This document shows positions 10,016 to 40,168 of a DNA stretch of 40,168 nt, in pieces. Source of the DNA: a virus. Its lineage: Duplodnaviria > Heunggongvirae > Uroviricota > Caudoviricetes. Each line of letters starts with the position of its first letter. The stretch's first letter is position 1. Location of the stretch: IMG/VR virus record IMGVR_UViG_3300029305_011675; one strand, 5' to 3'. Position numbers and translations under genes: made by a program. The notes below the pieces were generated by a model. The model was not told where the DNA came from and made no database searches. It worked only from the letters and a program-made list of their open reading frames with translations.

Positions 10016-10234
10016 CTGTATAGGTGTGTTCCTACTCACACCCACAATTGTATTTTGGTTCGAATCCAACCTCTGTTTAATAGTAGATTTCCAAAGCACA
10101 ATTTTTGTATCGTTACTATATCACACATTATCACTATTGTCAAGCCTTTTTTACAAAAACAAATTTTAATTTTATTGACAATAAAACGAATGCTATCCAT
10201 AATATATTCAATATGAATGAAAGGATGATTACTT

Positions 10235-11650
10235 ATGAAACTACTAAAATCAAAAGCAGGTTTTACACTAATCGAACTTCTTGTAGTTATAGGTATCCTT
10301 GCAGTCCTCGCCGCTATCGCAATCCCATCAGTTGCTGGACTTATCGATAGAGCGAATGTATCTGCTGACAAAACTAACACCAATGAATATACAAATGCTA
10401 TTGAAAGGTTTGCAAGTGAGTACGAACTCTACTGTCAGGACATTGCATCTGGTGTATTAATAGATACAAATAATGATGGCAAACCAGATAATATGGATGC
10501 CACACAAAACAGAGTCTATAGTGTTACTGGCATAACAACAAGAAATGGTATAGAAACAACAGAAATAGCATATAACGGAACTATCAACAACAATATTCCT
10601 CAACTTTATAGAGACACAAAATATCCCGCAAATGCTTATACACTAAAGAAAATTATTGAGAGTTATACAAAAACATCTTCTTCAACCTTTGAACCAAAAC
10701 AATCAGATATGCATTATTGGTATAGTCCAGATTGTGGTGTAGTTATTTATGCATCACCAAACTCTTCTATCGCAGACAAAAATAAAATGATAACTTCTGG
10801 TGTTGATGCAAAGGGGAGACCACTTGTAGATAACGGAGAAAATGCTACCATTTGGATAAATTTAACAAATGGAGCAAATGACGGAAAACTTGATTATGGT
10901 TCTAATGACCCAGACTTAAATCCAGTCAAAAATGTTCCAAATGATGCAATCTATCTTAAAGAATGTGTTATATGCCCGACATGTCAGTGGACCTTTGCGG
11001 ATGGGAAATACATAAGTGCTTTAAGTTGTGGCCATAGTTACAATTTTCCTGATGTAGATAGACGAGTCTATGTATTTCCAGATACACCTAAAGAAGGCGA
11101 TGTATATATCTATGGAGATTATTACTATTATTATAAGTGGGCAAGATGGTATGTAACAACTATAGATAAAAACAAAACATCATACTCACCAGTTATCGAA
11201 TCCATTAATGAAGTCCCAATATCATCAATGAGAGGTTGTTATGCAGGTTGTGCAAATTTAACAAACATTGATAATTTGATTATACCAGACAATGTTTTTG
11301 ATGTGTATGGAATGTTCAAAGAATGTAAAAACATAACAAACATAGATAACTTTAAACTCCCCCAAAGTGCAAGAATTATTGACTATTTATTCCAAGGATG
11401 TTCTTCTGTTAAGAGGTTTGAAAATTTTGTAATACCATCATCTGTTAAAGATGCAAACGGAGTTTTTGTTGGTTGTTCAAACCTTGAAGGAACAATAACA
11501 ATTAGCAAAGGCACCAATCTCGTTTCTCATGCAGATTGGTTTATGAATGTCGGTGCTTCAAAAATCACTGTTTACGGCGACGACATAGAAGTTGAGAAAA
11601 TAACCTCTAATAGTGCACCAAGAATTGAATTTATAAAAAACCCACAATAA
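10235..11650 (+). CDS. Type IV prepilin-like protein with C-terminal BspA-type LRR region
   Basis: KAG|FTLIELLVVIGILAVLAAIAIP class III signal. C-terminal repeats such as CANLTNIDNLIIPDNV and CSSVKRFENFVIPSSV. Promoter ttgaca-17-cataat at 10175-10203. Confidence 0.8.
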   Translation: MKLLKSKAGFTLIELLVVIGILAVLAAIAIPSVAGLIDRANVSADKTNTNEYTNAIERFASEYELYCQDIASGVLIDTNNDGKPDNMDATQNRVYSVTGITTRNGIETTEIAYNGTINNNIPQLYRDTKYPANAYTLKKIIESYTKTSSSTFEPKQSDMHYWYSPDCGVVIYASPNSSIADKNKMITSGVDAKGRPLVDNGENATIWINLTNGANDGKLDYGSNDPDLNPVKNVPNDAIYLKECVICPTCQWTFADGKYISALSCGHSYNFPDVDRRVYVFPDTPKEGDVYIYGDYYYYYKWARWYVTTIDKNKTSYSPVIESINEVPISSMRGCYAGCANLTNIDNLIIPDNVFDVYGMFKECKNITNIDNFKLPQSARIIDYLFQGCSSVKRFENFVIPSSVKDANGVFVGCSNLEGTITISKGTNLVSHADWFMNVGASKITVYGDDIEVEKITSNSAPRIEFIKNPQ

Positions 11651-11710
11651 TTTTTACAATCAGCCCTCCACCCCTCCCCATAACCCATTTCAACATTGTT
11701 CAAGAATCAC

Positions 11711-11745
11711 AAATTGCCCGAACATTCTGTTCGGGCAATTCTTTT
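11711..11745. terminator. Bidirectional hairpin terminator
   Basis: aattgcccgaac / gttcgggcaatt. Confidence 0.75.
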
Positions 11746-11762
11746 ATATCTCCATTAACTTT

Positions 11763-13349
11763 CTATTCAACACCTGACACTCCCAGTATAGTTTTACTAT
11801 AAGGCACATCGAGTATATGTAAATCAATCTCCAAACCTAAAATCTCCAAAATAAGTTCATCGAATTTTCTTCGATACTCAATAGGAAACTTTACATTTTC
11901 CTGATATTCCCCAGCATTCATCTTTTTAACGATATATTTTGTTTCATCTGCAATTATCTCATCAACCAATTCTTTCATTTTCTGATACTGTTCGTCAGAA
12001 ATAACATCTATAAAAGATGGCATTTTAAGAGCAAGAGAAGACGAGAAATTGATACCGCCATCGAACATTCTCCAGTACCAATAAGCGAAACTGGAATTAA
12101 GCATTGTATAGATATAGTAGAAAGACTTTTCGTCTTTGGCATATATAGTATCTCGCATTGCTCGTTTCATAGGATAAGTAACTCCGCAGGTAAAGTACCT
12201 GCAGGCGTGTGGCATATACACCACCCACCCCTCCCCATCTTGCCCTGTAAAAGAAGACTTTTTCACAGTACACTCTGCAAGAGTAGAATTAGACTTACTA
12301 ACCCATAAATCATACAAACATTCCAAATCCTTTATATGCTTACAATAGATAGGATTACTACCATCAATAATCTGTTTCTTATCCGATAATAAACCATATA
12401 AGAAGTCCCTATTAAGCAAACCTTCTCTTTCACTGTTATGAAACCGAATAAGTTGAGAAGTACGGAAACCCTTATCACCCTCATTATTAACAACTGTAAT
12501 AGTAGTTCTTACAGAGTTTCTATTACTGGACGATAAAGTACCTATTTTATTACCGCAAAAGATATTACCAGGGACATTATCAAAAGAGAAGAAATAACCA
12601 GAATAGTCGTTAAGGAAATACCTCATTTTAGAGAACTTATTACCAGATAGAAAACTATAAGGTGTAATAAGCACGGATGCTTTTGAATAGCGAATAATCT
12701 TCTCCATAAAAGCACCGTATAACTCCCTACATTGCTTTGCAATATCCGTTAAGGTGAAATCACAATTGTTCACATCAATCTTATAATAAGGTGGATTAGA
12801 AATTACCTTGCAATTAGAAGGCAATGCAGTTTTGTCATCCAAGAAATTTCCACAATAACACTTTATATTATCAAAGACTTCTCGACCAAATAAAATGGCG
12901 ATTTTGTGACGGCAAATAAGAAGTGCAAGTTCATCATTGTCATACAAATAAACATTACCGTTCAATAAAATATCTCTTGCATTATCTATTCTGCTTAATA
13001 CGGAAATAATAAGGTTGCCAGTACCGCAGGCAACATCGCCAATATTCTCACCTTTTAACTCATTAAAGAAATCTGCCATAACATTTGCTACATCGGAAGG
13101 AGTATAGTAGATGCCTGCTTCCTGCTTACTCTTTTTATTAACAAAGGCAAGTCCTAACTCATAAAGCATTCCGAAGTTATCTATATGAATAATAGATGTA
13201 TTATCGGGTTTCTTGTTGATATTCTCTTTTATAATAGCATACCATACTTCTTTGATACCGTAAGTGGTAATATCGTTATAGTATTGTTCTTCGGTATAGT
13301 TATCGAAGTTAATCTTTGGTGTGTTTTGGTATATAAAGAGATTTATCAT
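11763..13349 (-). CDS. N6-adenine DNA methyltransferase (solitary)
   Basis: GIYYTP, motif I DVACGTGN, motif IV SNPPY, LITPYS. Confidence 0.8.
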   Translation of the reverse strand: MINLFIYQNTPKINFDNYTEEQYYNDITTYGIKEVWYAIIKENINKKPDNTSIIHIDNFGMLYELGLAFVNKKSKQEAGIYYTPSDVANVMADFFNELKGENIGDVACGTGNLIISVLSRIDNARDILLNGNVYLYDNDELALLICRHKIAILFGREVFDNIKCYCGNFLDDKTALPSNCKVISNPPYYKIDVNNCDFTLTDIAKQCRELYGAFMEKIIRYSKASVLITPYSFLSGNKFSKMRYFLNDYSGYFFSFDNVPGNIFCGNKIGTLSSSNRNSVRTTITVVNNEGDKGFRTSQLIRFHNSEREGLLNRDFLYGLLSDKKQIIDGSNPIYCKHIKDLECLYDLWVSKSNSTLAECTVKKSSFTGQDGEGWVVYMPHACRYFTCGVTYPMKRAMRDTIYAKDEKSFYYIYTMLNSSFAYWYWRMFDGGINFSSSLALKMPSFIDVISDEQYQKMKELVDEIIADETKYIVKKMNAGEYQENVKFPIEYRRKFDELILEILGLEIDLHILDVPYSKTILGVSGVE

Positions 13350-13394
13350 GGAATGTTTCGCCTGCCTTTATTTTTGTGGTTGTTACATAGAAAT

Positions 13395-13423
13395 ATTATA
13401 GTATATTTTGGTAGATTTGTCAA
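13395..13423 (-). promoter_or_regulatory. sigmaA promoter TTGACA-17-TATAAT
   Basis: Minus strand ttgaca aatctaccaaaatatac tataat. Confidence 0.75.
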
Positions 13424-13800
13424 TTGGCATAGGGATTATTGTATATTAGATGGTTGTTGGAATCGTAAACAGGAATAGTTTGGGAGGGAGGACTGGTTTA
13501 GGAGGCATGTTTGCTTTTTTTAAGGGGTCGTGATGGAAGGAAAGGAGGATGGACAAAAAGAAACCCAAAGGCGAATAGTGCCTTTGGGTGTTATTTTTCG
13601 GAAGATTAAAAGTGAGGAAGGCTGGGAATGTTTTTTGAATGGGTTAAACCTTTCGAGAGGGTTGTGAAATGATAATGTTTATTTTTTTGAGTGGGTTATG
13701 AGTGGTGGTTGGGTGGGTGGAAAAATGTTGAAATATTTTTTGATATTAGCGAAAAAATGATTTACAATTTTTTCATCAATTAAAGAAGGGGGTCTTTTTT

Positions 13801-14829
13801 ATGACTAAAAGACTTTTGTCATTGCTTTTAGCAATTATTTTAGTTTTCTCCGTTACTGGTTGTGCAACAAGTAAAAACGACACAAAACCAAACGAAGAAA
13901 CAACAAACACAGAGACATCTACAGAACCTTCTGACACGACACCAGATGACACACAAACAGACACAACTGTTACAGAACCATCTGATACCACAACAGAAGA
14001 AGATGCCACAACACCAACAGAATCAACCACAGAACAAGAGACCAAACCAAGTCAAGATACAAATAAGGAAACAGAAAACACTACAGAAAAAGAACAAGAA
14101 AAAGTAAATAACAACAAAACAGAAACAGAAAAAGAAAATACGACTTCCAGTTCTGACCGTGTTGTAGTAAAGGATGAAGTTGAAGTGAAGCAATCTAATG
14201 TTGGTCTTCAAGTATTCGATAGTAAGATGATTAGTTATTTGGAACAAAAATACGGTGTCAAAGAAAATATGTTTGCTTCTCCTCTTTCTCTAAAATATAT
14301 GCTTACTATGGCAGCAATTGGTTCTAATGGAGAAACTCAAAAAGAACTTTTACAGGTTTTGGGTTTCAAATCTATTAAAGAGTGTGAAGATTGGGCAAAA
14401 TCTTACCTCGAAATGACGAAACCACTCGATAATCTCATTACAGAAACTCCTCCGCAGGAAGATGGTATTATCGCATCACCTGGTATTATTGGTGGTTCGG
14501 ACAAAACAACTCTCAATATTGCAAACTCCGTATGGCACAATGCAAATAAGGGTGGTAAAATCAAAACAACCTTTATAAATGCTATAAACAAAGCATGCGG
14601 TGCAGAAGTATTCAATGTAAACGGAAATAAATTAAAGAACGAAATCAATACTTGGATTGAAAAAGAAACAAATGGAATGATTAAGAATATGGTTGATGAT
14701 TCCGTTGCCAATAAAAACACAGTTTTGATAAATGCTCTGTATTTAAAAGCACAATGGACTTCGAAATTCAGCAAAGGTCTTACACACAAAGACAATTTCA
14801 AATGCACCAAAGAATCGGCGGGGTCATAA
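13801..14829 (+). pseudogene. Serpin-domain lipoprotein, C-terminally truncated
   Basis: Lipobox VTG|C and T/E-rich linker. Serpin motifs SPLSLKYML, IANSVW, INTWIEKETNGMI, VLINALYLKAQW. Stops shortly after and has no reactive-centre loop. Confidence 0.8.
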
Positions 14830-15008
14830 AAACGTTGTGGAATATCTGCCCATAAATATTGAGACTCTATCATATCGAAGTTGTAAACACTATTGCAGTC
14901 TCTATATTTGTACAAATATCGTGGGTACTTATCTATTTGAATGGTTATTGTTTTCTCATCACTAATCCCAATTATTTGGTCGAGTTTTTGTTTGAAATAT
15001 TTATCCAT
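14800..15008 (-). pseudogene. 5' fragment of a DUF2971-like gene
   Basis: GGAGG RBS. YLYKYR...LWAD...FYDPAD motif, after which the reading frame runs into antisense serpin sequence. Confidence 0.6.
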
Positions 15009-15020
15009 AAAACCCTCCTA

Positions 15021-17120
15021 TTAAGCAAATAACTTCTTGATTCTCTCTGATACGGAATTCTCCAATGTTGCAAACCTTGCCTCAAGTTCTTCACTTGCAG
15101 TGGGTTGCTTATACTGATAGAAATATTTGGTGAATGGGATTTCTGCACCAACACGAATCACAGGATTCTTCTTGGTCATATCTTCTTCCCAGAACCACTT
15201 CGCATCAGGAACATGAGGAAGAACTTCTCTTGCCATATAATTTTCAATATCTTCATCCCACTTAACGATTTCTGTATCTTTTGTTGTCTTATCATAAATA
15301 ATTTCTCCCTTGTTTTTGCCCTTGGGTTCTCTCTGAATTTCGGCTTCTTTATCCATCACAGATAAGCCATCGGCAATCTTTGCAATAAGTTTAGCATCAA
15401 TGCCAGTATCAGCAAGAATATCATTCAAAACAGGCATGAAATCATTTACAGAAAGGTGTTTAATTGTACTAATGGCATTATTTAATGCTTCGAGAACGGC
15501 ATCATAGAGTGGTTTGTTCTTTCTAAAACCATCCAACTTTGTTTGTTCCTTGCCACTAATAGAAACACCCTTGTTTTCTAATTCAGCAACCTTTGCTTCA
15601 TCGTAAAGACCATTCAATGCACCAGATTGAAGCATATTAGCAATACTTTTTTCTGTGATGGAATAACTTCTCTGAAGCGGTTGCATTACTGCATATTCCT
15701 TATAAATAAACTCTGTATTGTCGTAAATCTTAACGACATCGGTATTGACAAAATCAGCATACAACTTTGTAATCATTGCTCTATCCTCTGGCAAGAATTC
15801 GTTTTTCTTATTGCCCAGAGGTTTTCTTAATTTATGGCAAATGGCAGATGCATCAATTAACTGAATCTTGCCTTTCCTTTCAGGTCTCTTGTTCTTGGAA
15901 AGTAACCAAATATAAGTTGCGATGCATGTATTATAAAAGGAATCGGTAGGTAACTGAATAATTGCTTCAATCAAATCGTTTTCAAGCAACCATCTACGAA
16001 TTTGAGATTCGCCAGATGCTGTGCCACCAGTAAACAATGGAGAACCATTGGAAATAATAGCAGCACGACCAACATTATCATCCATCTTATGAACTGCCGA
16101 CTGCATAAAGAGCAACTGTGAGTCGCCACCACCAGGAAGACCTGCTCCCCAACGACCAACCATACCCTTTGCATGTTCTGTCTTAACTGCATCTTCCTGA
16201 CCTGCCTTGGCACTTTCTCCAGACCAAGGTGTGCCAAAAGGAGGATTTTCCAACAAGAATCTCATCTTGGTTTCAGGGAAACAATCATTCTTCAAAGTAT
16301 CTGTATGACGGAAGTTCTCTGCATTCTGACCTTTGATAAGCATTTCAGCAAGACCAACAGCATAAGAAGGACCCATAAATTCCTGACCAAACAAACGAAC
16401 ATCGGCAGTAGGATTGAAGTGCTTCAAATATGTATAAGCAGTAGACAACATACCGCCAGTACCACATGCTTGGTCACAAACGGTCAAAATTTTCTTATCA
16501 TCAAAGATATCATCGCAACCTTCTGCAATCAAGAGAGATACACACAGTTTTACTATGTCACGTCCAGTGTAGAACTGACCTGCATCAACATTCTGATAAA
16601 AACGACCAATCAGATTTTCAAAGATATAACCCATCTTAATGCTATCGTAAGTAGAAGGATTAAGGTCAAGTTCGGAGAATGCCTTTGCAACAGAATACAA
16701 ACAACCGTCCTTGTCCATCTTTTCGATGTGTTTCTTCATTTCTAACTCATTTAAGATGTCCTGAACATTATTGGAGAATCCAGCAATATATGCATTAAAG
16801 TTGGAGGCGATATGGTCAGCATCATTGCAAAGTTCTTTCAAATCAAATTCACTGGTATTATAAAACTGATATCCAGATATACGGCACATTGCCTTGTAAG
16901 GATACAGTGGATTTTCCTTAAATTTATTAACTACTGCTTGCTTTGTATCAGCAAGAGTGCATTCAAAACGGCGAATGATAACCATAGGGATGATTACATC
17001 ACCATACTTGTCGGGCATATAAGAACCCCTTAATTTGTTTGCGATAGACCAAATAAAGTTAGCCTCCGCAGTTACATCTACGGGAGTTTCGTCCCAAATC
17101 ATATTTTTAATATCAGTCAT
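15021..17120 (-). CDS. hsdM: Type I restriction-modification methyltransferase subunit M
   Basis: ANFIWSIANKLRG N-terminus, GQFYT, DQACGTGGML, NPPFG, NGSPLFTG. No hsdS or hsdR in the window. Confidence 0.9.
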   Translation of the reverse strand: MTDIKNMIWDETPVDVTAEANFIWSIANKLRGSYMPDKYGDVIIPMVIIRRFECTLADTKQAVVNKFKENPLYPYKAMCRISGYQFYNTSEFDLKELCNDADHIASNFNAYIAGFSNNVQDILNELEMKKHIEKMDKDGCLYSVAKAFSELDLNPSTYDSIKMGYIFENLIGRFYQNVDAGQFYTGRDIVKLCVSLLIAEGCDDIFDDKKILTVCDQACGTGGMLSTAYTYLKHFNPTADVRLFGQEFMGPSYAVGLAEMLIKGQNAENFRHTDTLKNDCFPETKMRFLLENPPFGTPWSGESAKAGQEDAVKTEHAKGMVGRWGAGLPGGGDSQLLFMQSAVHKMDDNVGRAAIISNGSPLFTGGTASGESQIRRWLLENDLIEAIIQLPTDSFYNTCIATYIWLLSKNKRPERKGKIQLIDASAICHKLRKPLGNKKNEFLPEDRAMITKLYADFVNTDVVKIYDNTEFIYKEYAVMQPLQRSYSITEKSIANMLQSGALNGLYDEAKVAELENKGVSISGKEQTKLDGFRKNKPLYDAVLEALNNAISTIKHLSVNDFMPVLNDILADTGIDAKLIAKIADGLSVMDKEAEIQREPKGKNKGEIIYDKTTKDTEIVKWDEDIENYMAREVLPHVPDAKWFWEEDMTKKNPVIRVGAEIPFTKYFYQYKQPTASEELEARFATLENSVSERIKKLFA

Positions 17121-17139
17121 TTAATGCGCCTCCTAATTC

Positions 17140-17403: not shown

Positions 17404-17408
17404 ATCAT

Positions 17409-18140: not shown

Positions 18141-18261
18141 ATTGGTAACTCCTCTATATGTTTGTTAATTATTTTTTATATTAAATATAGAATATGTATA
18201 ATTACAATATTAAAATAATTTAACATTTTTTCAAAAATGTCAAGTAAAAATGATAAAAAAA

Positions 18262-18302
18262 ATAATAGGCATCCTGCAATTTTATGCAAGATGCCTATTT
18301 TT
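18262..18302. terminator. Hairpin terminator
   Basis: aataggcatc / gatgcctatt. Confidence 0.7.
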
Positions 18303-19800: not shown

Positions 19801-19948
19801 AAAATTTTAATCTCCTTTATCTTTTGTGTGCTCGGTTTTACCTCCATTATTGTATCACAAAATAGTGCCTATGTCAACTACTTTTTGTATTGATTTTGTG
19901 AAAAAAATATGTTATACTGTAGAAAATTTTTATGGAGGTGCTTTTGAA

Positions 19949-20566
19949 ATGCTCACTTCTAAAAAGGGTTTTACCCTTATCGAACTATTAGTAGTTATCG
20001 GCATTCTTGCTGTTTTAGCATTCGTAACTGTACCTTCTGTTGCTGGAATTATAGAAAAGGCAAGAGCATCAAGCGATATGCAAGAGATTAGAGCAATGGA
20101 AATCGCAATAAATCACTACGCTATTGATGGTCGCTCTTATTTGTCTGCGACTTATGATATGCCAAAAGTTGAAGCAGTATTAAGACAGGTAACAGATGGA
20201 GAAACGAATTATGAAGAACTAATCAATAACAGATGTAATGCGACATTTGATAAAGACTTTTTACCAATAACTGCAAAAAGTTTTTCAGCAGTCGTATTTA
20301 ATTACTGTCAAGTTGAAAACAAAAAATTAACAACACCATCTCAATTTGGTTTTGATTACTATTACAATGTAGATACAGGTCTCGTTGTAAAAGCAGAAAA
20401 AGGCATTACAGACAGAAATGTATTAAAAGAAATTTTAATGAGTACAAGAGATGAAGATGATTTAACGGGAATGTGGATTAATATTACTTCATCTGTTGAA
20501 AACGGACTAACAAATGAAATGCCAACAGAAAACTATATACTATATACAAGTAACAATGGAGGGTAA
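19949..20566 (+). CDS. Type IV prepilin-like protein (pilin module only)
   Basis: GGAGGTG RBS; KKG|FTLIELLVVIGILAVLA; promoter ttgatt-17-tatact upstream. Confidence 0.8.
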   Translation: MLTSKKGFTLIELLVVIGILAVLAFVTVPSVAGIIEKARASSDMQEIRAMEIAINHYAIDGRSYLSATYDMPKVEAVLRQVTDGETNYEELINNRCNATFDKDFLPITAKSFSAVVFNYCQVENKKLTTPSQFGFDYYYNVDTGLVVKAEKGITDRNVLKEILMSTRDEDDLTGMWINITSSVENGLTNEMPTENYILYTSNNGG

Positions 20567-20569
20567 TAT

Positions 20570-21472
20570 ATGAGCAGTGTAATTTCTATGAAAAATATTT
20601 CGAAAGTTTATCGAAATACAAAAGCATTGAATGATTTTTCTATTGAAATCAACAAAGGTGATATTTACGGTTTAATCGGACCAAATGGTGCTGGTAAATC
20701 TACTTTTATCAAGGTTATTACTGGTCTTACAATGCCAACAACTGGCGAACTAACTATTTTTGATTCTGCTAATTTAGAAGAACCAAGAAGAAATATCGGT
20801 TCTATTATCGAAACACCAGTATTCTTCAAAAATTTAACAGCAAGAGAAAATTTGATTTTCTATTGCAAACAGTTTAACTGCAAAGAAGAAATTGTTGATA
20901 TTTGCTTGGAAAAAGTGAAGTTATCCAGTGTTAAAAACACGAAAAAGTTTAGAGAATATTCTCTCGGAATGAAACAGAGACTCGGAATTGCTCTTGCTTT
21001 GATGAATAATCCAAAACTTGTAATTTTGGACGAACCCACAAATGGTCTTGACCCAGTCGGCATTTCCGAATTAAGAGAAATTATCAAAGAACTTAATGAT
21101 AATGGTGTTACCTTTATCATTTGTAGTCATATCTTGTCAGAACTTTCTCAAATTGCCACAAAGTTTGGCATTATCAATGAAGGTAAATTCATCAAGGAAT
21201 TTACAAAGGATGAATTGGCAGAAATGACAAGTGATAAGATTATTATTGCTTCACCAGAATTCGATAAATTAAAAGAATATCTCACATCAAAGAAATTGGC
21301 ATTCGAAGAAATCGACCACAACACTGTTGAGGTTGAGAGTAAAGATATGCAAACTCACACATTTGCAAAAGATATGGTTGAAAAAGAAATCGTTATCGAT
21401 GCAATTTATCATAAGAAAATCACTTTGGAAGATTTGTTCTTAACTATTTTGAGTAATGGAGGTAATGCATGA
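20570..21472 (+). CDS. ABC transporter ATP-binding protein (BcrA/lantibiotic-immunity type)
   Basis: GPNGAGKS, YSLGMKQRLGIA, ILDEPTNGLDP, SHIL. Confidence 0.9.
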   Translation: MSSVISMKNISKVYRNTKALNDFSIEINKGDIYGLIGPNGAGKSTFIKVITGLTMPTTGELTIFDSANLEEPRRNIGSIIETPVFFKNLTARENLIFYCKQFNCKEEIVDICLEKVKLSSVKNTKKFREYSLGMKQRLGIALALMNNPKLVILDEPTNGLDPVGISELREIIKELNDNGVTFIICSHILSELSQIATKFGIINEGKFIKEFTKDELAEMTSDKIIIASPEFDKLKEYLTSKKLAFEEIDHNTVEVESKDMQTHTFAKDMVEKEIVIDAIYHKKITLEDLFLTILSNGGNA

Positions 21473-22308
21473 TGACAAACTTATTGAAAGCAGACTTGTA
21501 TAGAACAAGTAAATCAAAATCTCTTTATGTAACGGCAATTGTATGTATTGTTTTTGTATTGCTTTCCGCATTACTTTATAAAGGCATTGATATTGTTGCC
21601 AACACTTTGTTGCCAGGTGAAAGTATTATGCAAGAAACCCCCGTTGAAGGCGGAGATATCGCCGAAATGGGAGATATGCTGGTAGGAAGTTTTGGTTCTT
21701 CAACAGCATTTACAACGGCACAGGAAATTCTAAAATCCGATACGCTTATTTATTGCTTAATTGCGATTTTCATTTTGGTTTCTGCGGTTGAATTTTCATC
21801 GGGAACGATTAAAAACTCGCTTACTGCTGGTATCAGTAGAAAAAATATCTATTTTTCAAAGTTTACACTTTCTTGTTTGTATACGATTGGTTACTATTTA
21901 GTATTTTTCGTATTTGCAATTTTAAGTAGTATGCTTGTATATTGGGAAGGTATTTCTGCATCCCAACTTGGAGAATTGTTATTTACAGGAATTAGGCAAA
22001 TTCCGATTTATATCGGTGTAATCGCCGCCGCACATTGTTTCGTATTTGCGACACAATCAACGGTAGCATCTGTTTCTTTATTTATCGTTTCTTTTATGAT
22101 TTTTAACACCATTTTACCAATGTTCAATATGGTGCTTGGTTGGGACATGAATGTAACACTTCTTTTCCCTCTATATCAGTGTATTGAACTTGTTAATTTT
22201 GATGTATCAGCAATCAACTATGCAACAATATATGGTAGTACACTTTTATACATCCTACTATTTGTATGGTTTGGTTATGCAAAATTCAAAAAATCAGAAA
22301 TTAAATAA
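21469..22308 (+). CDS. ABC-2 type transporter permease
   Basis: Multiple hydrophobic helices; EFSSGTIKNSLTAGISR motif; ATGA overlap with the ATPase gene. Confidence 0.85.
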   Translation: MMTNLLKADLYRTSKSKSLYVTAIVCIVFVLLSALLYKGIDIVANTLLPGESIMQETPVEGGDIAEMGDMLVGSFGSSTAFTTAQEILKSDTLIYCLIAIFILVSAVEFSSGTIKNSLTAGISRKNIYFSKFTLSCLYTIGYYLVFFVFAILSSMLVYWEGISASQLGELLFTGIRQIPIYIGVIAAAHCFVFATQSTVASVSLFIVSFMIFNTILPMFNMVLGWDMNVTLLFPLYQCIELVNFDVSAINYATIYGSTLLYILLFVWFGYAKFKKSEIK

Positions 22309-22318: not shown

Positions 22319-22352
22319 AAAAGTACCAGACAAATGTCTGGTACTTTCTTTT
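22319..22352. terminator. Bidirectional hairpin terminator
   Basis: aaagtaccagaca / tgtctggtacttt. Confidence 0.75.
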
Positions 22353-24872: not shown

Positions 24873-25090
24873 ATGACATCCTCTACCGCTTCAAGCGGTA
24901 GTTTCCATTACGAACAACCCTAACGGTCTAACCACGGGTTGTTCATTTTTTATAGAAACCACCATTAAAGTGGAATTACAAGGTTTCTGCTTCTTCCATC
25001 ACTGCCAATTGAGCATAACTCAACTGGTCTTACACGATGTCCACAGACGTAAGTTCCCGTGTGTCCCACGGTACTGTTTATATAATTAGG
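24873..25090 (-). ncRNA. Predicted TnpB omega-RNA (reRNA) scaffold
   Basis: About 210 nt between the tnpB stop and the IS right end, as established for IS200/IS605 tnpB loci. Boundaries are inferred. Confidence 0.55.
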
Positions 25091-26243
25091 CAGTGAGCAA
25101 TCTCTTGCCTTCGTTCAATATGTTGACAGAAGCATTAAAATCTCTATCGTGGGCAGTATTGCAATTGGGACATATCCAATTTCTAACGGAGAGATTTTTT
25201 ACTTCTGCATTTTTGTATCCACAGCAACTGCAGATTTGTGAACTTGGGTAGTAGGTATCAACCTGTATGAAAGTTTTACCATACCATTCAGATTTATATT
25301 TTAATTTAGATATAAATGAATACCAACCAAGTTCGCCAATGTTTTTATGCAATTCCTTACTGTAAGGCAAAGAATTGTCCATTAGCATTTTCTTAACATT
25401 AAGATGCTCTACCGCAATTAAGTCATATTCTCTTACTATATCAAGAGATAACTTATGAAGAAAATCTTCTCTACAGTTCGCATCTTTTCCACAGAATTTT
25501 GCTAATTTTAGTTTTGCTTTCTCTCTATTTTTTGAACCCTTTTGCTTTTTAGAGAGTTGCCGATAGAGTCTTCTCTTTTTCTTTTCGTTTTGCTTGATAA
25601 AATTGGGTTTTTCGATAACTGTTCCATCGGAAAATGTAGTGAAATGACTAATTCCGATATCGATACCTACTTCTTTGCCAGTTTTATCAAACTGTTCAAT
25701 TCTATCTGCACGACGAATAGTAAGAGTTACATAAACTTTACCAGATTTCGTTTTTTTAACAGTCGCAGATTGAATAGTGCCGTTAGGTATCGCTTGATTA
25801 GGTTTGGTTCTCACCCAACCAAATTTTCCCAACTTAATTTTGTTACCATCAAAACGAATGCCATTTGTAACATTCATTATACGAAAACTCTGGTTACTGT
25901 GTTTGCTGCGGTATTTTGGTAAACCGCATTTCTTTTGATAAAAGTGTTGCATTGTGGTCCAATAGTCCTGCAACGCTTGTTGTAAACAAGTAGCATCTGC
26001 TTCTTTAAGAAATGGGTTTACTTTCTTTAAATTTGGTAATTCTTTTGCCAAATTTACAAAATTATACTGTTGCAAGTTATTCTTGTACCTATCGGTATTA
26101 AAATCAATTGCCCAGTTATATATAAAACGAGAGTGACCAAAATATTTATTGAGAAGTTCTAATTTTGAAACGGGTATGTCTATACTGCATTTAATATTAA
26201 CAGTATTCGTTCCATTGCTTTTGAAAGAACCTTTCTTAAACAT
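25086..26243 (-). CDS. tnpB: RNA-guided endonuclease TnpB
   Basis: HSRFIYNWA HTH, RuvC GIDIG / AVEHL / HDRDFNA, zinc ribbon CSCCG..CPNC. Own promoter ttgaca-17-tataat. Confidence 0.9.
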   Translation of the reverse strand: MFKKGSFKSNGTNTVNIKCSIDIPVSKLELLNKYFGHSRFIYNWAIDFNTDRYKNNLQQYNFVNLAKELPNLKKVNPFLKEADATCLQQALQDYWTTMQHFYQKKCGLPKYRSKHSNQSFRIMNVTNGIRFDGNKIKLGKFGWVRTKPNQAIPNGTIQSATVKKTKSGKVYVTLTIRRADRIEQFDKTGKEVGIDIGISHFTTFSDGTVIEKPNFIKQNEKKKRRLYRQLSKKQKGSKNREKAKLKLAKFCGKDANCREDFLHKLSLDIVREYDLIAVEHLNVKKMLMDNSLPYSKELHKNIGELGWYSFISKLKYKSEWYGKTFIQVDTYYPSSQICSCCGYKNAEVKNLSVRNWICPNCNTAHDRDFNASVNILNEGKRLLTA

Positions 26244-26434
26244 TTTTATCACTCCTTTCATAAGTTTTATATGTATAAATTATACTTAAAAAGTAAGAAA
26301 ATGTCAATAGAATCCAATAAACAAACAGCACCGCTACCGCTCTACTGTTTGTTTAAGATATGCGGTCTTGCACTTCAAGTGCGACCGCTGTGCCTGCATC
26401 CACCGTCAAAGACGGATGTTTTGACACTTAAATA

Positions 26435-33131: not shown

Positions 33132-33142
33132 GAGGTGATATT

Positions 33143-33565: not shown

Positions 33566-33567
33566 CT

Positions 33568-34272
33568 GTGAAAATTAGATATGGTTTTGTAACAAACAGT
33601 TCGAGTTCTTCTTTCATTATCAAAAAGAAGGACAATTTCAATTCGGTCGAAGATGTTTATCAAACCGTAAAACAACTGTATGTTGAATTCAAAAATGTAA
33701 TTGACAATGCAGTAAATGCTTGCAAAGATAATCCCAAATATACTATCGTAAGAGATAAGGACGACAACAATAAGGTTGTTCACATTACTCTCACGAAAGA
33801 GAAAGGTTATGATTGGTTGACCGAAACCGATGCTTTTGAAGCAGAATTCGGAATTGGTCTTCTCGATTATTTGGGTTATAACCTTACTTGGATGGAGACT
33901 TGCCCCACCTATCAAGACTTCTTAAAGAAGTTTGAAGGTGAATATGGTCCTTTTAGAATTCTCGATTTCTCAAAACCAGAAGATAGAGATTCTGATGAGG
34001 AAGAAAGTCTTATGAGCATCCTTTGCTGGTATATGCCTTGCTATGACGACAACAGCAGAAATTGCAACACTTGTAGGTACACCAAGTATTGCGACTTTAA
34101 TAAGAAGTGTCCTGACCTAATCGATAAGGTTAAAGATGCAAACGGTGATATCGATGTTGTGTTTGAAGTCTTTGGACAGTTCTGTGTTGCAAGTGAGTGC
34201 GGTTATATTCCCGATTATGTTGTGCAGAGGTTGTCTGGTTTGTCAACTTTTGCCTGCAATCACATGGGTTAA
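33568..34272 (+). CDS. GFVTNSSSSSF-motif protein with a cysteine cluster
   Basis: GTG start after AGGAGG. MKIRYGFVTNSSSSSF; CNTCRYTKYCDFNKKC; ends in CNHMG. Confidence 0.75.
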   Translation: MKIRYGFVTNSSSSSFIIKKKDNFNSVEDVYQTVKQLYVEFKNVIDNAVNACKDNPKYTIVRDKDDNNKVVHITLTKEKGYDWLTETDAFEAEFGIGLLDYLGYNLTWMETCPTYQDFLKKFEGEYGPFRILDFSKPEDRDSDEEESLMSILCWYMPCYDDNSRNCNTCRYTKYCDFNKKCPDLIDKVKDANGDIDVVFEVFGQFCVASECGYIPDYVVQRLSGLSTFACNHMG

Positions 34273-34290
34273 TCTGAAAGGAGAAAAGAT

Positions 34291-34689
34291 ATGAAATTTA
34301 GAAAAGGTTTTGTTACCAACAGTTCGAGTTCATCTTTTATCGTTGCTGTAAAGGACGACGGTTCTGAAACTCTAAATGCTTTTATGAAGGCATTTGTGGA
34401 TTCGGAAGATTACAATGAAACTCGCAAGGGTCATTCGTATAAGACAAAGGAAGAACTCGACAAGTATTATGTTGAAAATTTCAAGTCTTCTCGTTGTAAG
34501 ACTCTTGAAGAAATTCTCGAAGACGATGAATATCTCGAAGAACAGTACAACAAGGAACTGGAGTGCATCGAAAAAGGCTTCGTCATTCTCACAAAGGATA
34601 TCGGATATGGCGACGATGGTTTGACCTCGTTTGTTTCCATTTTCGCTGAATCTCTTGGAGAAAATGCAATCTTGTTCGATACTGACTAA
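34291..34689 (+). CDS. GFVTNSSSSSF-motif protein
   Basis: AAGGAG RBS; MKFRKGFVTNSSSSSF; terminator at 34697-34731. Confidence 0.75.
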   Translation: MKFRKGFVTNSSSSSFIVAVKDDGSETLNAFMKAFVDSEDYNETRKGHSYKTKEELDKYYVENFKSSRCKTLEEILEDDEYLEEQYNKELECIEKGFVILTKDIGYGDDGLTSFVSIFAESLGENAILFDTD

Positions 34690-34809
34690 AAGTAATAAGA
34701 AATGGTTTCCGCAAGGAAACCGTTTCTTTTCTTGAGAAAAAACAAAGATTATTTTAAAATCTTCACAGACTTTCATTTAAACAAAAATTCTAAAAGGAGG
34801 AATGTAATT

Positions 34810-35406
34810 ATGTGTAAAGAAAGAAAGTCCCTTGCCCTCGATGTAGATGGCGTATTGATGGAATGTTACCCGCCTATCAATGCACGAATTATCGCAAAGT
34901 TCGATATGCCCGAAGATTTCCGTATCCAGCGAGTAGTAAGAAGTTGGAATATGATGGAACTTCCCGAAGAAGTTCGTCGTTTCGCTCTTGACTGCATGGG
35001 AGATGCAGAAATTGTTGAGCAGTACACTTTCAAGAAAGGTAGTTTGAAGTTCGTTAAGGAACTCTATGACTGCATTACCAGTCATGGTGGTGAATTCATC
35101 TTCAACACTCACTGCTTCAATCAGGCAGTTGGCGATGTTCGCCGTAAGCAGTTGGAAACCATTTCCGCAAAACTCGGCATTTGTCCTACCTACAACATTT
35201 CTGTTGGTAAGGTAAAGGTCAATGCTGAAACCGACATCATCATTGATGACCACATGGGGAATCTGGATGCTTCTGTTGCCGACACCAAGATTCTTTTCTC
35301 TATGTTCCATAATAGAGATTTGAAGGTCGGAGATGCTTTCAGAAGTAACGATTACAATGCAATCGTTAAACACGTTAAGGAGGTAGTCTGCTGTGAAGAA
35401 TGTTAA
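34810..35406 (+). CDS. HAD-superfamily 5'(3')-deoxyribonucleotidase-like phosphatase
   Basis: LDVDGVL motif I; IIIDDH; AAGGAGG RBS. Confidence 0.7.
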   Translation: MCKERKSLALDVDGVLMECYPPINARIIAKFDMPEDFRIQRVVRSWNMMELPEEVRRFALDCMGDAEIVEQYTFKKGSLKFVKELYDCITSHGGEFIFNTHCFNQAVGDVRRKQLETISAKLGICPTYNISVGKVKVNAETDIIIDDHMGNLDASVADTKILFSMFHNRDLKVGDAFRSNDYNAIVKHVKEVVCCEEC

Positions 35407-35665
35407 AGAAACCCAACTGAAAAAGGCAATCTTTTTGGAAAAAGAACAGTATGAAGAGGCACTTATCGAAATCTTCGGAACCGATGTAACCGTTCATCCT
35501 GACCTTGATGGTATCTGGTATGAATACAATGAAGAAGCAGTCGAAGATGAAATCGAAAATGTCCTGCTTGAAAAGTTGACTGACTATTTCGATGTCGATG
35601 AAGTCACTTCTGTACATGCCGACGATTGCGATACCGTAGGTATCTGGGTTGTCTACAAAGACTAA
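35393..35665 (+). CDS. Small acidic hypothetical protein
   Basis: GTG start after AAGGAGG; terminator at 35677-35708. Confidence 0.65.
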   Translation: MKNVKETQLKKAIFLEKEQYEEALIEIFGTDVTVHPDLDGIWYEYNEEAVEDEIENVLLEKLTDYFDVDEVTSVHADDCDTVGIWVVYKD

Positions 35666-35714
35666 AAACATAAGTTAAGTCCGAGATTTTCTCGGACTTT
35701 TCTTTTTTGTATTT

Positions 35715-35743
35715 TTGACAAAACGAAAAATTTATGTTATAAT
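35715..35743 (+). promoter_or_regulatory. sigmaA promoter TTGACA-17-TATAAT
   Basis: ttgaca aaacgaaaaatttatgt tataat. Confidence 0.8.
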
Positions 35744-35767
35744 TTAGAATAAAGGACGGTGATTATT

Positions 35768-38215
35768 TTGAAGCAATATAATGCAGATAGCATTACCGTA
35801 TTGGAAGGTTTAGACCCTGTACGAAAAAGACCAGGTATGTATATCGGTTCTACATCAGTAAAAGGATTAAACCATCTAATATTTGAAATTGTGGATAACT
35901 CCGTTGATGAACACCTTTCTGGTTATTGCGACAAAATCATTGTGAGCCTGAACAAAGACGGTTCAGCAACAATTGAGGACAATGGTCGTGGTATTCCAGT
36001 AGATATTCATGCGAAAGGTTATCCAGCAGAAAGAATTATCTTTACCACACTCCATGCTGGCGGTAAGTTTGATAATTCAAACTACAAAACATCTGGTGGT
36101 TTGCACGGTGTTGGTTCTTCTGTTGTTAATGCACTATCTTCAAAGATGATAGTAACTATCAAAAAAGATGGTTTTGTGCATTATGACGAATATGCTTTTG
36201 GCAAACCCGCTTTTCCATTAAAGAAAAACGAACCACTCCCCACAAAAGGAAAAACGAAGGAAACTGGAACAACAGTTACTTTTTACCCAGATGAAACAAT
36301 TTTTGATACTACAAAATTCAAGGCATCATCTATTGAACAAAGATTGCACGAAACAGCATTCCTAAATCCAAACTTAACAATCGTTTTTAGAAATGATAGA
36401 GATGATTTACCAGAAAAGGTATTTCACGAAGAAGATGGATTAAAAGGTTTTGTCTTATCGTTAACAAAAGATAAAGAAAAGAGCACACCCGTTGCATTTA
36501 TCAACGGTGAAAAAGATGGAATTATTTTTGAGTGTGCCTTTCAATATGTTAATGAATTTGGAGACAATCTAATTGGTTTTTGTAACAACATCAACACTGT
36601 TGAAGGCGGAACACATATTGATGGTTTCAAAGCAGGATTTGCCCGTATTCTCAATCAATATGCGAGAGATATTGGTTCTCTCAAGGAAAAAGACCCGAAC
36701 TTCACAGGCAATGACACAAGAAATGGTATGGTTTGTGTTCTTTCTATCAAACACCCAGCACCTCGTTTCGAAGGTCAAACAAAAACAAAGTTAGACAATA
36801 CGGATGCTAAAAACATAATTCAATCCATATTAAACACAGAACTGCAGGTTTTCTTCGATAGAAATGTTGATGTATTGAAGACAATTATTGCAAGTGCTGA
36901 AAAATCGGCAAAATTACGCCGAGAAGAAGAAAAAATCAAAACAAATATTGCCGATAAGAAATTCTCATTTGAAGGCAACGGAAAACTTTCGAGACAAGAA
37001 TCCAATGATGCCTCAAAATGCGAAATCTTTATCGTTGAGGGTGAGAGAAAGATTTGCCCTTATCCTTCTTTCCTGCTATCACAGGGGTAAATACAATGTA
37101 TTTGCTAACGAGGAAGACTGACCGTTATCCTTGAATGTCAAAACAAGGTTAGGCGAAGTTAATCTCGTGGAAGTTGTAAAATACAACTCTGTATCGACTA
37201 TCTCCGTTGTTGGAGAGTACTGGTGTTATTGATACACACTGGGAAATGTTGGACACGATGATGACCTGACAAGTCGGAGTGAAGAAATAGTCAGTTCCAT
37301 AAGAAATTGTGGTTGTAACGAAATCTGCAGGCGGTTCAGCAAAAACCGCAAGAAACAGAAAATATCAAGCAATCCTCCCAATTCGAGGTAAAATTCTTAA
37401 TGTTGAAAGACAATCGATTGGAAAAATTTTAGACAATGCCGAAATTAAGGCAATGATAAATGCTTTCGGTTGTGGTTTTTCAACTGGTCTTGGTAATGAT
37501 TTTGATATTTCAAAACTCAATTATGATAAAATCATAATCATGGCTGACGCGGATATTGACGGCGGGCACATCAGAACACTTTTATTAACATTTTTTTATA
37601 GATTTATGCCAGAACTTATTTATGCTGGTAAAGTTTATAATGCGATGCCTCCGCTATATCGAGCAAAAACATCAAAGTCTGAAGTTTATATGTATTCCGA
37701 CAAAGAATTAGAAGAATACAGAAAAACACATAAGAATTTTGATATACAACGGTACAAAGGGTACGAGTAGTCTGGCCCTTATCTACTTTTCCTCTATCAG
37801 AGGGGTCACACAATGTGTGGCTAACGAGGGATATTCCTACTACAACATATAGTTGTGAATGAGGATGGTCTCGTGTGAAATAAGATTTTTAATCTTTAAT
37901 CATGTATCGACTATCTCCGTTGTTGGAGAGTACAACTGTTATTGATACACAGTTGGAAAAGGTAGAGTCTATGAAGGCAGTTAGTTACCAGCCAGAGACA
38001 AGAAATAGTCAGCACCGATAGTAATATCGGATAAAAGCGTAGGCGAAATGGATGCAAAACAATTGTGGGAAACCACGATGAATCCAGAAACAAGAAAACT
38101 CAAAAAAGTTGAAATTGAAGATGCTATCGAAGCAAATAATATCACTTCTATTCTTATGGGCAATGATGTGCCAGCAAGAAGAGAATTTATTATGTCGAGC
38201 GATAACTTTTCATAA
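35768..38215 (+). CDS. gyrB: Type IIA topoisomerase B subunit (GyrB/ParE), three exons: 35768-37042, 37321-37762, 38040-38215; about 630 aa spliced
   Basis: [38 protein letters not shown]. Splicing restores [13 protein letters not shown] and RYKG|LGEM, and keeps MADADIDG. gyrB versus parE is not resolved. Confidence 0.9.
37043..37320 (+). ncRNA. Group I intron 1 (278 nt, no ORF)
   Basis: 5' exon ends in U (GAGGGU pairs with IGS GCCCUU); P10 AGAUUU pairs with exon AAAUCU; R-like gtatcgactat; S-like gaagaaatagtc; terminal G. Confidence 0.9.
37763..38039 (+). ncRNA. Group I intron 2 (277 nt, no ORF)
   Basis: 5' exon AAGGGU pairs with IGS GCCCUU; P10 GUCUG pairs with exon UAGGC; same R and S elements; terminal G; splicing restores KGLGEM. 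Confidence 0.9.
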
Positions 38216-38250
38216 TTTTTCTAAATAAAATACAAAAAGGAGTATATCTT

Positions 38251-38874
38251 ATGAAAAAAATATTATGTTTAATTTTATCGGTTTTGTTGCTATTCTCTAT
38301 AGTTGCTTGTGGTCAAAACAACAATACTACCAATAACACTGATGAAAGTATTGTTCAAGACACCACAGAAGACGAAACACAAACCGAACCCACAACAGAA
38401 GATACCAAACCTGTTGAGGATGAAATAACAAAAAACGAAGAAGTGGATGACGGTGAATACAAAAGTCAAACTTACATCATCTATAATCTAACAAACGATT
38501 TGTCCAATAGTTCAACAGTCAGACTCCATTTCACGAATAAAAAATATGGAAATTCCGAAACATTAGGCGATTATTCTCGTATATTTAGGGATGATGACGG
38601 AAACATTCTTGGAGTTATTTCTTTGTATCAAGAGCAGTATCTTTCTATTAGCAGCGAATTTACCGTCGAAGAAATGAAAGATATAGAAATTTCATCAGAT
38701 TATGCTTGGACAATTAAAAAGTTAACTACATCAGAACAAACAAAGTATAGACTTTTTACCAAAGCAGGAAATGAGGAAACTGTTTTTGATTTAATCCTTC
38801 AGGGCGATGATATTGAAATTCTAAAAGAAATTGCTGGATGTATGGTTGTTGAGTCTTGGGAAAACAGAAAGTAA
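38251..38874 (+). CDS. Lipoprotein of unknown function
   Basis: MKKILCLILSVLLLFSIVA|CG lipobox followed by a T/E/D-rich linker; terminator at 38886-38914. Confidence 0.8.
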   Translation: MKKILCLILSVLLLFSIVACGQNNNTTNNTDESIVQDTTEDETQTEPTTEDTKPVEDEITKNEEVDDGEYKSQTYIIYNLTNDLSNSSTVRLHFTNKKYGNSETLGDYSRIFRDDDGNILGVISLYQEQYLSISSEFTVEEMKDIEISSDYAWTIKKLTTSEQTKYRLFTKAGNEETVFDLILQGDDIEILKEIAGCMVVESWENRK

Positions 38875-38976
38875 ATACACAATACAAATCTCCACCTTTA
38901 TGGTGGAGATTTTTCATTGACAAAAAGAAGAAAATCATTTATATTTAGTTTATCAAGTATGAAAGGATGATTTCTT

Positions 38977-40168
38977 ATGAAATTTAATTACAAATCCCGT
39001 AAGGGTTTCACACTAATTGAACTACTTGTGGTCATTGGTATTCTTGCTGTGCTCGCAGCAATTGCCATTCCAAGTGTTGCTGGTTTGATTGACAGAGCAA
39101 ATGTTTCTGCCGACAATACCAATGCTAATGAATATACTAATGCAATCGAAAGATTCGCAAGCGAATACGAACTCTATTGTCAGGATATTGCCAGTGGTGT
39201 CATTAAAGACGAAAATGGCGATGGCAAACCAGATGGCGATTTAGATAGTGCACAAGGTAGAGTATTCAATGTAACTGGTGCTGTATCTCGTGAAGACATC
39301 ACTAATTTAGAAAGCAATGGACACTTAAATTCTAAAATTAGTAGAGATACTAAATACCCACTAAATACATATACACTTGAAGCCATTATTCAAAATTATA
39401 CAAAAACATCAAGCGCAACATTTGAACCAAAACAATCAGATTGCAGTTATTGGTACAATCCAGATTGTGGTATTGTTGTAGTTGCTGATACTAATGCCTC
39501 TATTGCACAACTTAATGATTTAGTGGTTTCTGGCAAGGATGCAAAAGGAAATGCACTTGATGATAATTATGCAAATTGGTGTAATGTAACATCTGACTCG
39601 CAAGTACCAATGGTAAAAACAATAACTTTTAGTTTTGCTGGTTATAGATTTACAGCAAAAGAAGGTCAAACTTGGGAAGAATGGTTGAATGAACATCCAG
39701 AATATCAAAGAACAACTCCAACACCAGAAATTTACTTTGACTTTATGCATGATGATGCTATAAGAATTTATACACCAAAACATACATCCGCTGATTCTTG
39801 GAGTTTAAGTGGTGCGCCAGATTCTTATTGGGTCGAAAGAACCCATGTTATAGTTGATGGAAGAGATTATCAACCAATCCATTGGTGTTGCTTTGATGCT
39901 GGTTCACAAGTTTTGATGGCAGATGGAACAACCAAGAACATTGAAGATGTTATTGTTGGTGATATGGTAATGTCACTCAATGAAACTACTGGCGAATTTG
40001 TTGCACAACCAGTAACCAATACCATTATCAAGCACAATTCTGATGACCTTGTATATGTAAATCTTTCTGATGGTACACAAATCGGAATGAGAGCATATCA
40101 TCCACTCCTCACCACAGATGGCTGGAAATCTTTGAGACCAGAAATGGTTGAGACAATTACTGATGTTG
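38977..40168 (+). CDS. Type IV prepilin-like protein with a C-terminal Hint (hedgehog/intein-like) domain, open at the window end
   Basis: Manually translated, absent from the ORF track. RKG|FTLIELLVVIGILAVLAAIAIP; from 39889 CFDAGSQVLMADGTTKNIEDVIVGDMVMS...HPLLTTDGW. Promoter ttgaca-17-tatatt at 38917-38945. Confidence 0.85.
   Translation, partial: MKFNYKSRKGFTLIELLVVIGILAVLAAIAIPSVAGLIDRANVSADNTNANEYTNAIERFASEYELYCQDIASGVIKDENGDGKPDGDLDSAQGRVFNVTGAVSREDITNLESNGHLNSKISRDTKYPLNTYTLEAIIQNYTKTSSATFEPKQSDCSYWYNPDCGIVVVADTNASIAQLNDLVVSGKDAKGNALDDNYANWCNVTSDSQVPMVKTITFSFAGYRFTAKEGQTWEEWLNEHPEYQRTTPTPEIYFDFMHDDAIRIYTPKHTSADSWSLSGAPDSYWVERTHVIVDGRDYQPIHWCCFDAGSQVLMADGTTKNIEDVIVGDMVMSLNETTGEFVAQPVTNTIIKHNSDDLVYVNLSDGTQIGMRAYHPLLTTDGWKSLRPEMVETITDV

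Follow-up and report, generated by a model that had tools for sequence, protein, structure and literature searches.

We analysed a 40,168-nucleotide (nt) stretch of DNA, hereafter the window, from the virus record IMGVR_UViG_3300029305_011675. The window has a GC content of ~35% and carries three genes for prepilin-type proteins, which we named pil1, pil2, and pil3. An earlier reading of the letters alone (hereafter the original prediction) had placed three such genes at positions 10235, 19949, and 38977 and proposed that they share a module of ~200 amino acids (aa), both of which were borne out by profile matches and pairwise homology. Pfam N_methyl matched all three proteins, and NCBIfam TIGR02532 scored above its cut-off for each, in the case of pil3 through a complete ortholog (P0051, 96-98% identical). 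All three carry a canonical class III signal, G/FTLIELLVVIGILAVLA, where the slash marks the cleavage site. Its leader is short and basic, Gly occupies -1, Phe +1, and Glu +5, and ~20 residues are hydrophobic. The site reads KSKAG/FTLIELLVVIGILAVLAAIAIP in pil1, with equivalents in pil2 and pil3. A back-translated GFTLIEL pattern had exactly three mismatch-free sites in the window, namely the pil genes, against 0.43 expected by chance.

The three genes and their control elements all lie on the plus strand. The pil1 gene (10235-11650, 471 aa) comprises a carrier module (10235-10867), made up of the prepilin signal, a long alpha-1 helix, and a head with WINLT at its end, and a tail (10868-11650) made up of a Cys-rich stretch and BspA-type leucine-rich repeats (LRR) resembling LRR_5 and DUF285. 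With its sigma-A/sigma-70-type promoter (10175-10203, TTGACA-17-CATAAT, 11 of 12 consensus positions) and an intrinsic terminator formed by a two-way hairpin at its end (11712-11740), pil1 is a self-contained cassette of promoter, gene, and terminator. The pil3 gene starts at 38977 and continues past the window end, with 397 aa visible and ~59 further codons judged from P0051 (456 aa). It encodes a carrier module with WCNVT at its end (38977-39591), a middle domain of ~97 aa (TITFxxAGxxFTAxEGxTWxxW...) without a family match (39592-39888), and the N-terminal part of a Hint domain (39889-40168). An ESM Atlas search with the middle domain gave no usable match. A 24-nt segment holding leader, ribosome-binding site, and start codon, ATGAAAGGATGATTNCTTATGAAA, is conserved between pil1 (10217-10240) and pil3 (38959-38982). 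As the original prediction had noticed, these two genes have it in common; it is confined to these two places in the window, where 0 occurrences are expected, and pil2 does not have it. The TTGACA box of the pil1 promoter also aligns upstream of pil3. The two 207-aa genes preceding pil1 and pil3 were considered as part of a duplicated unit, but they are unrelated to each other, and the duplicated unit is therefore the pilin cassette alone. The remaining gene, pil2 (19949-20566, 205 aa), is a diverged, tail-less member of the family. Its true start is the ATG at 19949; the GTG at 19826 chosen by the program listing open reading frames (ORFs) prepends 41 non-homologous residues. It is the first gene of an operon with a promoter-like site (19890-19918, TTGATT-17-TATACT with a TG extension), and is co-transcribed with a lantibiotic-protection-like ATP-binding cassette (ABC) ATPase and an ABC-2 permease (20570-22308) ahead of a terminator at 22320-22347. 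Searching with all modules and tails by tblastn for decayed copies or spare cassettes recovered only the three genes in the window.

The kinship of pil1 and pil3 held up, but not as recent duplication. Their modules are 67% identical over residues 5-212 (209 residues, E 1e-88), while dS is about 1.5, which marks them as old. The rates of nonsynonymous (dN) and synonymous (dS) substitution were 0.27 and 1.47 overall, and codons 1-75 had a dN of 0.105 with saturated dS. These values indicate old paralogs maintained by purifying selection on the module. The membership of pil2 was likewise upheld, by 31% identity to pil3 over the same span (E 5e-23), but as a distant, tail-less relative in an ABC-exporter operon. 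All three modules end in the predicted W(I/C)N(L/V/I)T motif, which is WINLT in pil1 (residue 207), WINIT in pil2, and WCNVT in pil3 (residue 201). The consensus ending of the shared ~200-aa module is W-x-[N/D]-[L/I/V]-T.

The signal peptide and the alpha-1 helix of the module are typical of pilins. The class III signal was present in all 105 full-length family representatives scanned, its G, F, T, L, and E were invariant across 74 sequences, and Glu5 and the P22-type helix are invariant in the family. A structural model of the module (overall predicted local distance difference test, pLDDT, of 86.2) contained an N-terminal helix of ~60 residues (residues 12-72, pLDDT 82-93). This alpha-1 helix superposed on those of the N. 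gonorrhoeae, Thermus, and D. nodosus pilins with a root-mean-square deviation of 1.6-3.8 Å and 38-41% identity, and sequence searches with it matched Geopilin, S. sanguinis PilE1, Myxococcus PilA, and PpdD. All three window proteins also matched PHROGs families, namely phrog_3433 ('pilin'), phrog_27437, and phrog_11596 (E 1e-5 to 1e-10). Structure prediction, which had been proposed as a check, supported the pilin helix but gave only weak pilin matches for the head. Modelled alone (pLDDT 90.6), the head formed three short helices and one hairpin. In a VIA search with the head alone, six of the top 14 among 48,161 chains were pilins or pseudopilins, all of them weak with Z between 3.1 and 4.2: PilJ (4.2), EpsG (3.9), MshA (3.8), PulG (3.4), PilA1 (3.3), and PilA4. 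Fold searches with the full module were dominated by the long helix, and we do not claim a new fold. The model is compatible with a very diverged pilin fold for the head, which is unproven. The cysteines C67 and C167 are almost invariant and may form a disulfide.

Beyond the window, pil1 residues 1-212 returned 538 matches from 5.8 billion proteins. The best 120 of these had at least 63% module identity, were 274-603 aa long, and varied in the Pfam domains of their tails. When the head was searched without its helix (residues 36-212) against 1.84 billion representatives using phmmer, 172 clusters were found, 154 of them at E ≤ 1e-10. Most of these matches placed the module start at residues 34-41, and the list ended without a trailing cloud of distant relatives, so the helix-less head defines a discrete, compact, and unannotated family. 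A search for more paralogs in relatives had been proposed, and a 678,911-bp assembly encodes the identical pil1 protein together with six or more further members of the family. Each genome has about a dozen stand-alone pilin copies. The JGI metagenome set contained 23 copies, all on short contigs of a single project, JAEIGA01. A head-only query (residues 39-212) had no match in 50,697 GenBank phage records, and whether or not the query included the helix, GenBank phages and PLSDB plasmids yielded no family member. Three module scans of IMG/VR yielded no true member, and the head-only query had no match there. One alignment-based scan of IMG/VR and a scan of GTDB keyed on the generic GFTLIELL helix and returned unrelated pilin N-termini only, making the GTDB outcome uninformative as to the family's absence from bacterial genomes.

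Homologs provided direct support for the proposal that the C-terminal parts of these proteins are interchangeable. Across 113 homologs, every pair of modules aligned (median identity 70%), and the tails comprised 7 unrelated multi-member classes and 12 singletons. In 234 pairs of proteins, the modules were at least 85% identical and the tails had no detectable similarity. Chimeras of this kind can break precisely at the junction: P0078 and P0083 are 97% identical through residue 207 and diverge exactly after ...EWIDLT, and P0176 and P0183 are 95% identical up to ...RWIDVTADV before similarity ends. The module tree implied at least 39 changes of tail class, compared with a minimum possible of 6 and 53.4 with shuffled labels, a count that is indicative only because the tree is poorly resolved; tail class thus seems weakly linked to the module tree. 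Replacement was also evident on a contig (L169) syntenic with the pil1 locus, whose pilin has a different tail of ~100 aa that begins with a motif similar to that of the pil3 middle domain. Nucleotide identity between this contig and the window was 95% in the upstream gene, 83% in the promoter region, 72% and then 62% in the module, ~46% with many gaps in the tail, and 79% in the downstream flank. This profile implies that the pilin gene is a hypervariable island in a conserved backbone. Tails have therefore been interchanged at a fixed junction. Programmed switching of the shufflon type was ruled out at the pil1 locus, where there are no sfx-type repeats or silent cassettes. Specifically, neither a significant inverted repeat at the junction nor a silent cassette in register was present in the searched region (8000-13500), and the window ORFs include no recombinase besides TnpB at 25086-26261. 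Hence, the exchange is better described as evolutionary recombination filtered by selection at the domain boundary.

The extra, non-pilus domains found behind the module are varied. Among the 105 representatives, tails matched LRR_5 (42), DUF285 (10), DUF6273 (4), LRR_8 (4), Hint (2), type I dockerin (1), and FNIP (1), and roughly two in five had no Pfam domain. Although LRR_5 tails in the family score up to E 1e-69, that of pil1 scored 25.8 bits (E 1.1e-5), below the Pfam gathering cut-off of 27.7; in BLAST comparisons it groups with tails that are genuine LRR_5 and DUF285 domains. The pil2 protein ends 25 residues past the junction motif. One of the tails, on contig L162, is a type I dockerin directly behind the carrier module (P0041, 284 aa, E 6e-12), an architecture that we did not find described. 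A pilin with a dockerin could dock to cellulosome cohesins, and this tail hints at cellulosome-producing Clostridia as hosts. Rumen Ruminococcus is known to make type IV pili (PMC3672088).

The Hint domain that follows the ~97-aa domain in the pil3 tail calls for a different interpretation from the one originally given, which had treated it as cargo. It scored 37.5 bits against PT-HINT (cut-off 27.7) and matched PDB 2lwy, a 'bacterial intein-like domain', at E 4e-4. The catalytic Cys305 and the block-B His375 do not vary among 8 Hint-class members, with the block B motif RAYH replaced by TGCH in P0092. In six of seven complete members, the domain terminates with (V/S)HN and the next residue is Ala; P0051, the closest ortholog of pil3, has HH-A instead. 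In complete orthologs, just 3-5 residues remain after the domain, often including a Cys. Because the domain is C-terminal with so few residues behind it and has the hallmarks of A-type bacterial intein-like (BIL) domains (Amitai 2003 and Dassa 2004, summarised in PMC7765530), it is predicted to be a terminal A-type BIL-like self-processing unit rather than cargo.

The surroundings of these genes are those of a phage-like element. We scanned the 41 ORFs of the window against profile families and found six DNA methyltransferase ORFs, a GmrSD/HNH nuclease, T5orf172, UDG, and TnpB, along with radical-SAM enzymes, a serpin-like gene, and a split T4-type topoisomerase II. The large subunit of the latter matched phrog_543 at E 7e-93. 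It is closest to 'Bacteriophage sp.' records of uncultured gut origin (60%) and to phages of Firmicutes (~45%), and relatives found in IMG/VR via the topoisomerase are just 36-38% identical. In the ESM Atlas, the cluster whose structure is nearest to that of the module is labelled Uroviricota for both members with a known phylum, which we treat as a lead only. In agreement with the original prediction, no PilB (T2SSE), PilC (T2SSF), or prepilin peptidase occurred among the 41 ORFs, and the unscanned gaps of at most ~660 bp are too short for PilB, PilC, or PilD. With its dispersed cassettes and phage-type neighbours, the replicon does not resemble a bacterial chromosome with a pil cluster, which the original prediction had named as one of the findings that would overturn it. 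The replicon is most probably the genome of a very large phage of Firmicutes from the gut or rumen. Megaphages that measure 500-716 kb and carry NAD modules have been described from the rumen (PMC11662467), and we found no mention of pilins in the jumbo-phage literature searched.

On balance, we favor the explanation that these genes encode element-borne modular type IV pilins whose interchangeable binding domains are presented on a type IV filament that most likely belongs to the host. The prepilin would be made and then cut after Gly-1 by a prepilin peptidase of the PilD/ComC type, whereupon the hydrophobic alpha-1 helix with Glu5 would bring the 200-aa carrier module into a filament, either a type IV pilus or a Com-type pseudopilus. 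We take the machine to be the host's because none is encoded in the window. The pilins would probably be low-abundance or tip subunits, thereby placing their C-terminal domains outside the cell wall. The tails are mainly ligand-binding domains (BspA-type LRR, DUF285, DUF6273, and dockerin), and their display would probably alter the adhesion targets of the infected cell, presumably to the benefit of the element. Recombination swaps everything 3' of the W-I-[D/N]-x-T junction and so renews the repertoire, with the carrier held constant by purifying selection. In the Hint class, the terminal BIL probably self-cleaves at Cys305, leaving the pilin with its ~100-aa domain, and the thioester intermediate might be resolved by hydrolysis or by transfer to another nucleophile. 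A more far-reaching version, in which a megaphage carries a self-renewing set of about a dozen pilin-anchored adhesins that re-target cell adhesion once loaded onto a type IV filament, and the BIL thioester of one class covalently attaches the pilin tip to a target, strikes us as rather doubtful. If true, the covalent attachment would be Hedgehog-like chemistry not described for any pilus.

Several observations weigh against the favored explanation. No peptidase, ATPase, or platform gene is present in the window, and nothing ties the pilins to a particular machine. The head had no significant match to solved pilins (none with Foldseek, and a Z of at most 4.5 with VIA); it is modelled as mostly helical with a short hairpin, and its capacity to assemble into a filament is unproven. 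Moreover, no virion hallmark gene (capsid, portal, or terminase) was seen in the window, meaning that the 'phage' label rests on context.

Some of these observations would fit other explanations. The machine might belong to the element itself, with peptidase, ATPase, and platform all encoded elsewhere, in which case pil2 could be its major subunit. The assembly carrying the exact pil1 protein is far larger than the window at 678,911 bp, and tail-less family members do exist (pil2; P0188 and P0227). However, no machinery lies within the 40-kb window, and pil2, at 31% identity to the other modules, sits in an ABC-exporter operon rather than a pil operon. We consider an element-encoded machine a tentative possibility. 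It is less plausible that the prepilin N-terminus is merely an export signal or membrane anchor, or jams the host's type IV pilus (T4P) or Com machine, with the tails mattering little. The pay-off might, for example, be protection against superinfecting phages that depend on pili, or a halt to DNA uptake. Phages are known to disable type IV pili to exclude competitors, for example through a T4P-inhibiting protein of a filamentous phage. A head that is not recognisable as a pilin fold would suit this role, and assembly could stall on bulky tails. Yet a blocker needs neither a dozen paralogs with differing conserved binding domains (LRR_5 to E 1e-69, dockerin) nor repeated in-frame exchange of tails at a domain boundary. 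Purifying selection also spans the whole 200-aa head, beyond the helix with its invariant Glu5 and P22-type features, and we judge blocking or anchoring to be unlikely.

Two further explanations concern where the proteins belong. Tail fibres classically combine an unchanging N-terminus with a C-terminal binding domain that can be swapped, and the nearest Atlas cluster carries a viral label, as might be expected if pilin-like helices bundled into the stalk of a fibre or whisker whose tails were the phage's swappable receptor-binding domains. Such a virion part is very improbable given that the very hydrophobic class III signal with its G/F site and E5 is a signal for membrane insertion and peptidase cleavage. 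To our knowledge, no virion protein has a class III signal, G/F site, and E5. The genes are also stand-alone cassettes with a host-type sigma-A promoter, located among DNA-metabolism and defence genes rather than in a structural module, and their neighbours include a lipoprotein and an ABC exporter. Finally, the contig could be part of a bacterial chromosome or megaplasmid whose cellular pilus system has these proteins as ordinary minor pilins. No gene for a capsid, portal, or terminase was seen in the window, and bacteria do have modular pilins with BspA-type LRR tails (PMC8179133). Against this stand the dispersed single cassettes without a pil operon, the phage-type neighbours, the lack of any match to the head-only module in PLSDB plasmids or GenBank phages, and the fact that the sole name among the best 120 homologs is a generic JGI prepilin label (P0106). 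We regard a cellular origin as scarcely credible.

Element-borne modular pilins would have both precedents and novel features. We take IPR026906 to be the entry for BspA-type LRRs. Modular pilins number >1,200 proteins with 264 architectures, and IPR026906 ranks within the 15 commonest of these (Raynaud et al. 2021, PMC8179133). In Streptococcus sanguinis, for instance, PilB bears a vWA module and PilC a lectin module (PMC8179133). The family described here likewise has a pilin module with a class III signal, a short link, and a grafted binding module for filament display. In contrast, it uses a single dedicated 200-aa carrier, found only in metagenomes, that bears many tails at one exact junction; it occurs as roughly a dozen stand-alone copies on a giant phage-like genome, outside a pil locus; its head lacks a significant structural match to solved pilins; and it includes terminal BIL and dockerin tails. 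A second precedent is the shufflon of plasmid R64 (IncI1), which varies PilV, the tip adhesin of a thin type IV pilus, by combining a constant N-terminal part with varied C-terminal parts. There, a single gene, silent segments, sfx inverted repeats, and the Rci recombinase permit switching within a cell. In both cases a mobile element varies the C-terminal part of a pilin while keeping its N-terminal part, and so would alter pilus binding, but here each variant is a full-length gene in its own right, equipped with its own promoter, and exchange occurs over evolutionary time and between genomes.

The remaining comparisons concern the BIL domain and known phage genes. Like A-type BIL domains, the pil3-class domain has Cys1, a block-B His, a C-terminal His-Asn, and no +1 nucleophile, and it resides in a hypervariable, non-conserved protein. 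Unlike them, it occupies the extreme C-terminus with no C-extein or toxin to release, a layout resembling Hedgehog-type C-terminal autoprocessing. We found no description of a pilin-BIL fusion in the literature searched. Pilin-like morons (phrog_3433, phrog_27437, and phrog_11596) are also phage or prophage genes with a prepilin-type N-terminus, although the matches to phrog_3433 and phrog_11596 were limited to the N-terminal 45-65 residues and that of pil1 to phrog_27437 reached residue 115. Our interpretation would make the modular-pilin design, known in bacteria, a large and fast-recombining gene family of a giant mobile genome, with a phage-like element devoting about a dozen promoter-equipped genes to changing the host surface. 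If true, very large phages manipulate cell adhesion in the gut and rumen, beyond replication and defence. The W-I-D/N-x-T junction is a natural fusion point that has served many unrelated domains in evolution and so offers a design rule for pilus display in Gram-positive anaerobes. The putative pilin-BIL fusion provides a testable case of self-processing on a pilus subunit.

Some genes adjoining the pilins may be connected with them. The 207-aa gene upstream of pil1 (9363-9986) has no family match and a 96% identical copy on L169. Its distant relatives (24-27% identity) adjoin pilin genes on three other metagenome contigs (L165, L173, and L183), and it may be an accessory gene of pilin cassettes. 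Immediately upstream of pil3 is a lipoprotein gene (38251-38874) with the lipobox IVAC/G and an acidic Thr/Glu-rich linker, which is missing from a syntenic contig (L181) and therefore resembles a further cassette for a variable surface protein. The minus strand, about 1 kb upstream of pil1, carries a stand-alone BspA-type LRR (LRR_5) ORF (8839-9246) of 135 aa with its own ATG and no signal peptide, which had no similarity to pilin tails at E 1e-4. The ABC ATPase of the pil2 operon is nearest to lantibiotic-protection transporters (TIGR03740, 243 bits, under the cut-off), and the operon may serve as a bacteriocin-immunity moron or may have a functional link to the tail-less pilin.

Elsewhere in the window, the large subunit of topoisomerase II is divided into two ORFs (35759-37090 and 37309-37770) by a stretch of ~279 bp (37042-37320), recalling T4 genes 39 and 60. 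Rfam had no matches in the window and found no intron at this split. The ~279-bp stretch is missing from L181 (1-1940), where the halves are contiguous and a 1.2-kb insert with a 274-aa helix-turn-helix ORF lies instead within the Toprim part. An unusually dense set of DNA-modification genes occupies 117-4645, 11763-13349, and 15021-17120, including an EcoRI-type methylase, a GmrSD-N/HNH gene, a pair of Eco57I/N6_Mtase ORFs (2665-4107 and 4088-4645) resembling the halves of a single split gene, a further N6 methylase, and an HsdM-like methylase beside a T5orf172 gene and a small winged helix-turn-helix gene. The serpin-like ORF at 13801-14829 has a Ser/Thr-rich, mucin-like N-terminus and matches only positions 11-185 of the 370-position serpin profile, implying that it may be truncated or frameshifted. 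The TnpB/IS605 OrfB-type gene on the minus strand (25086-26261; OrfB_IS605 and a Cas12f1-like TNB domain) has non-coding flanks of ~660 bp and ~410 bp, which could hold an omega RNA and the transposon ends.

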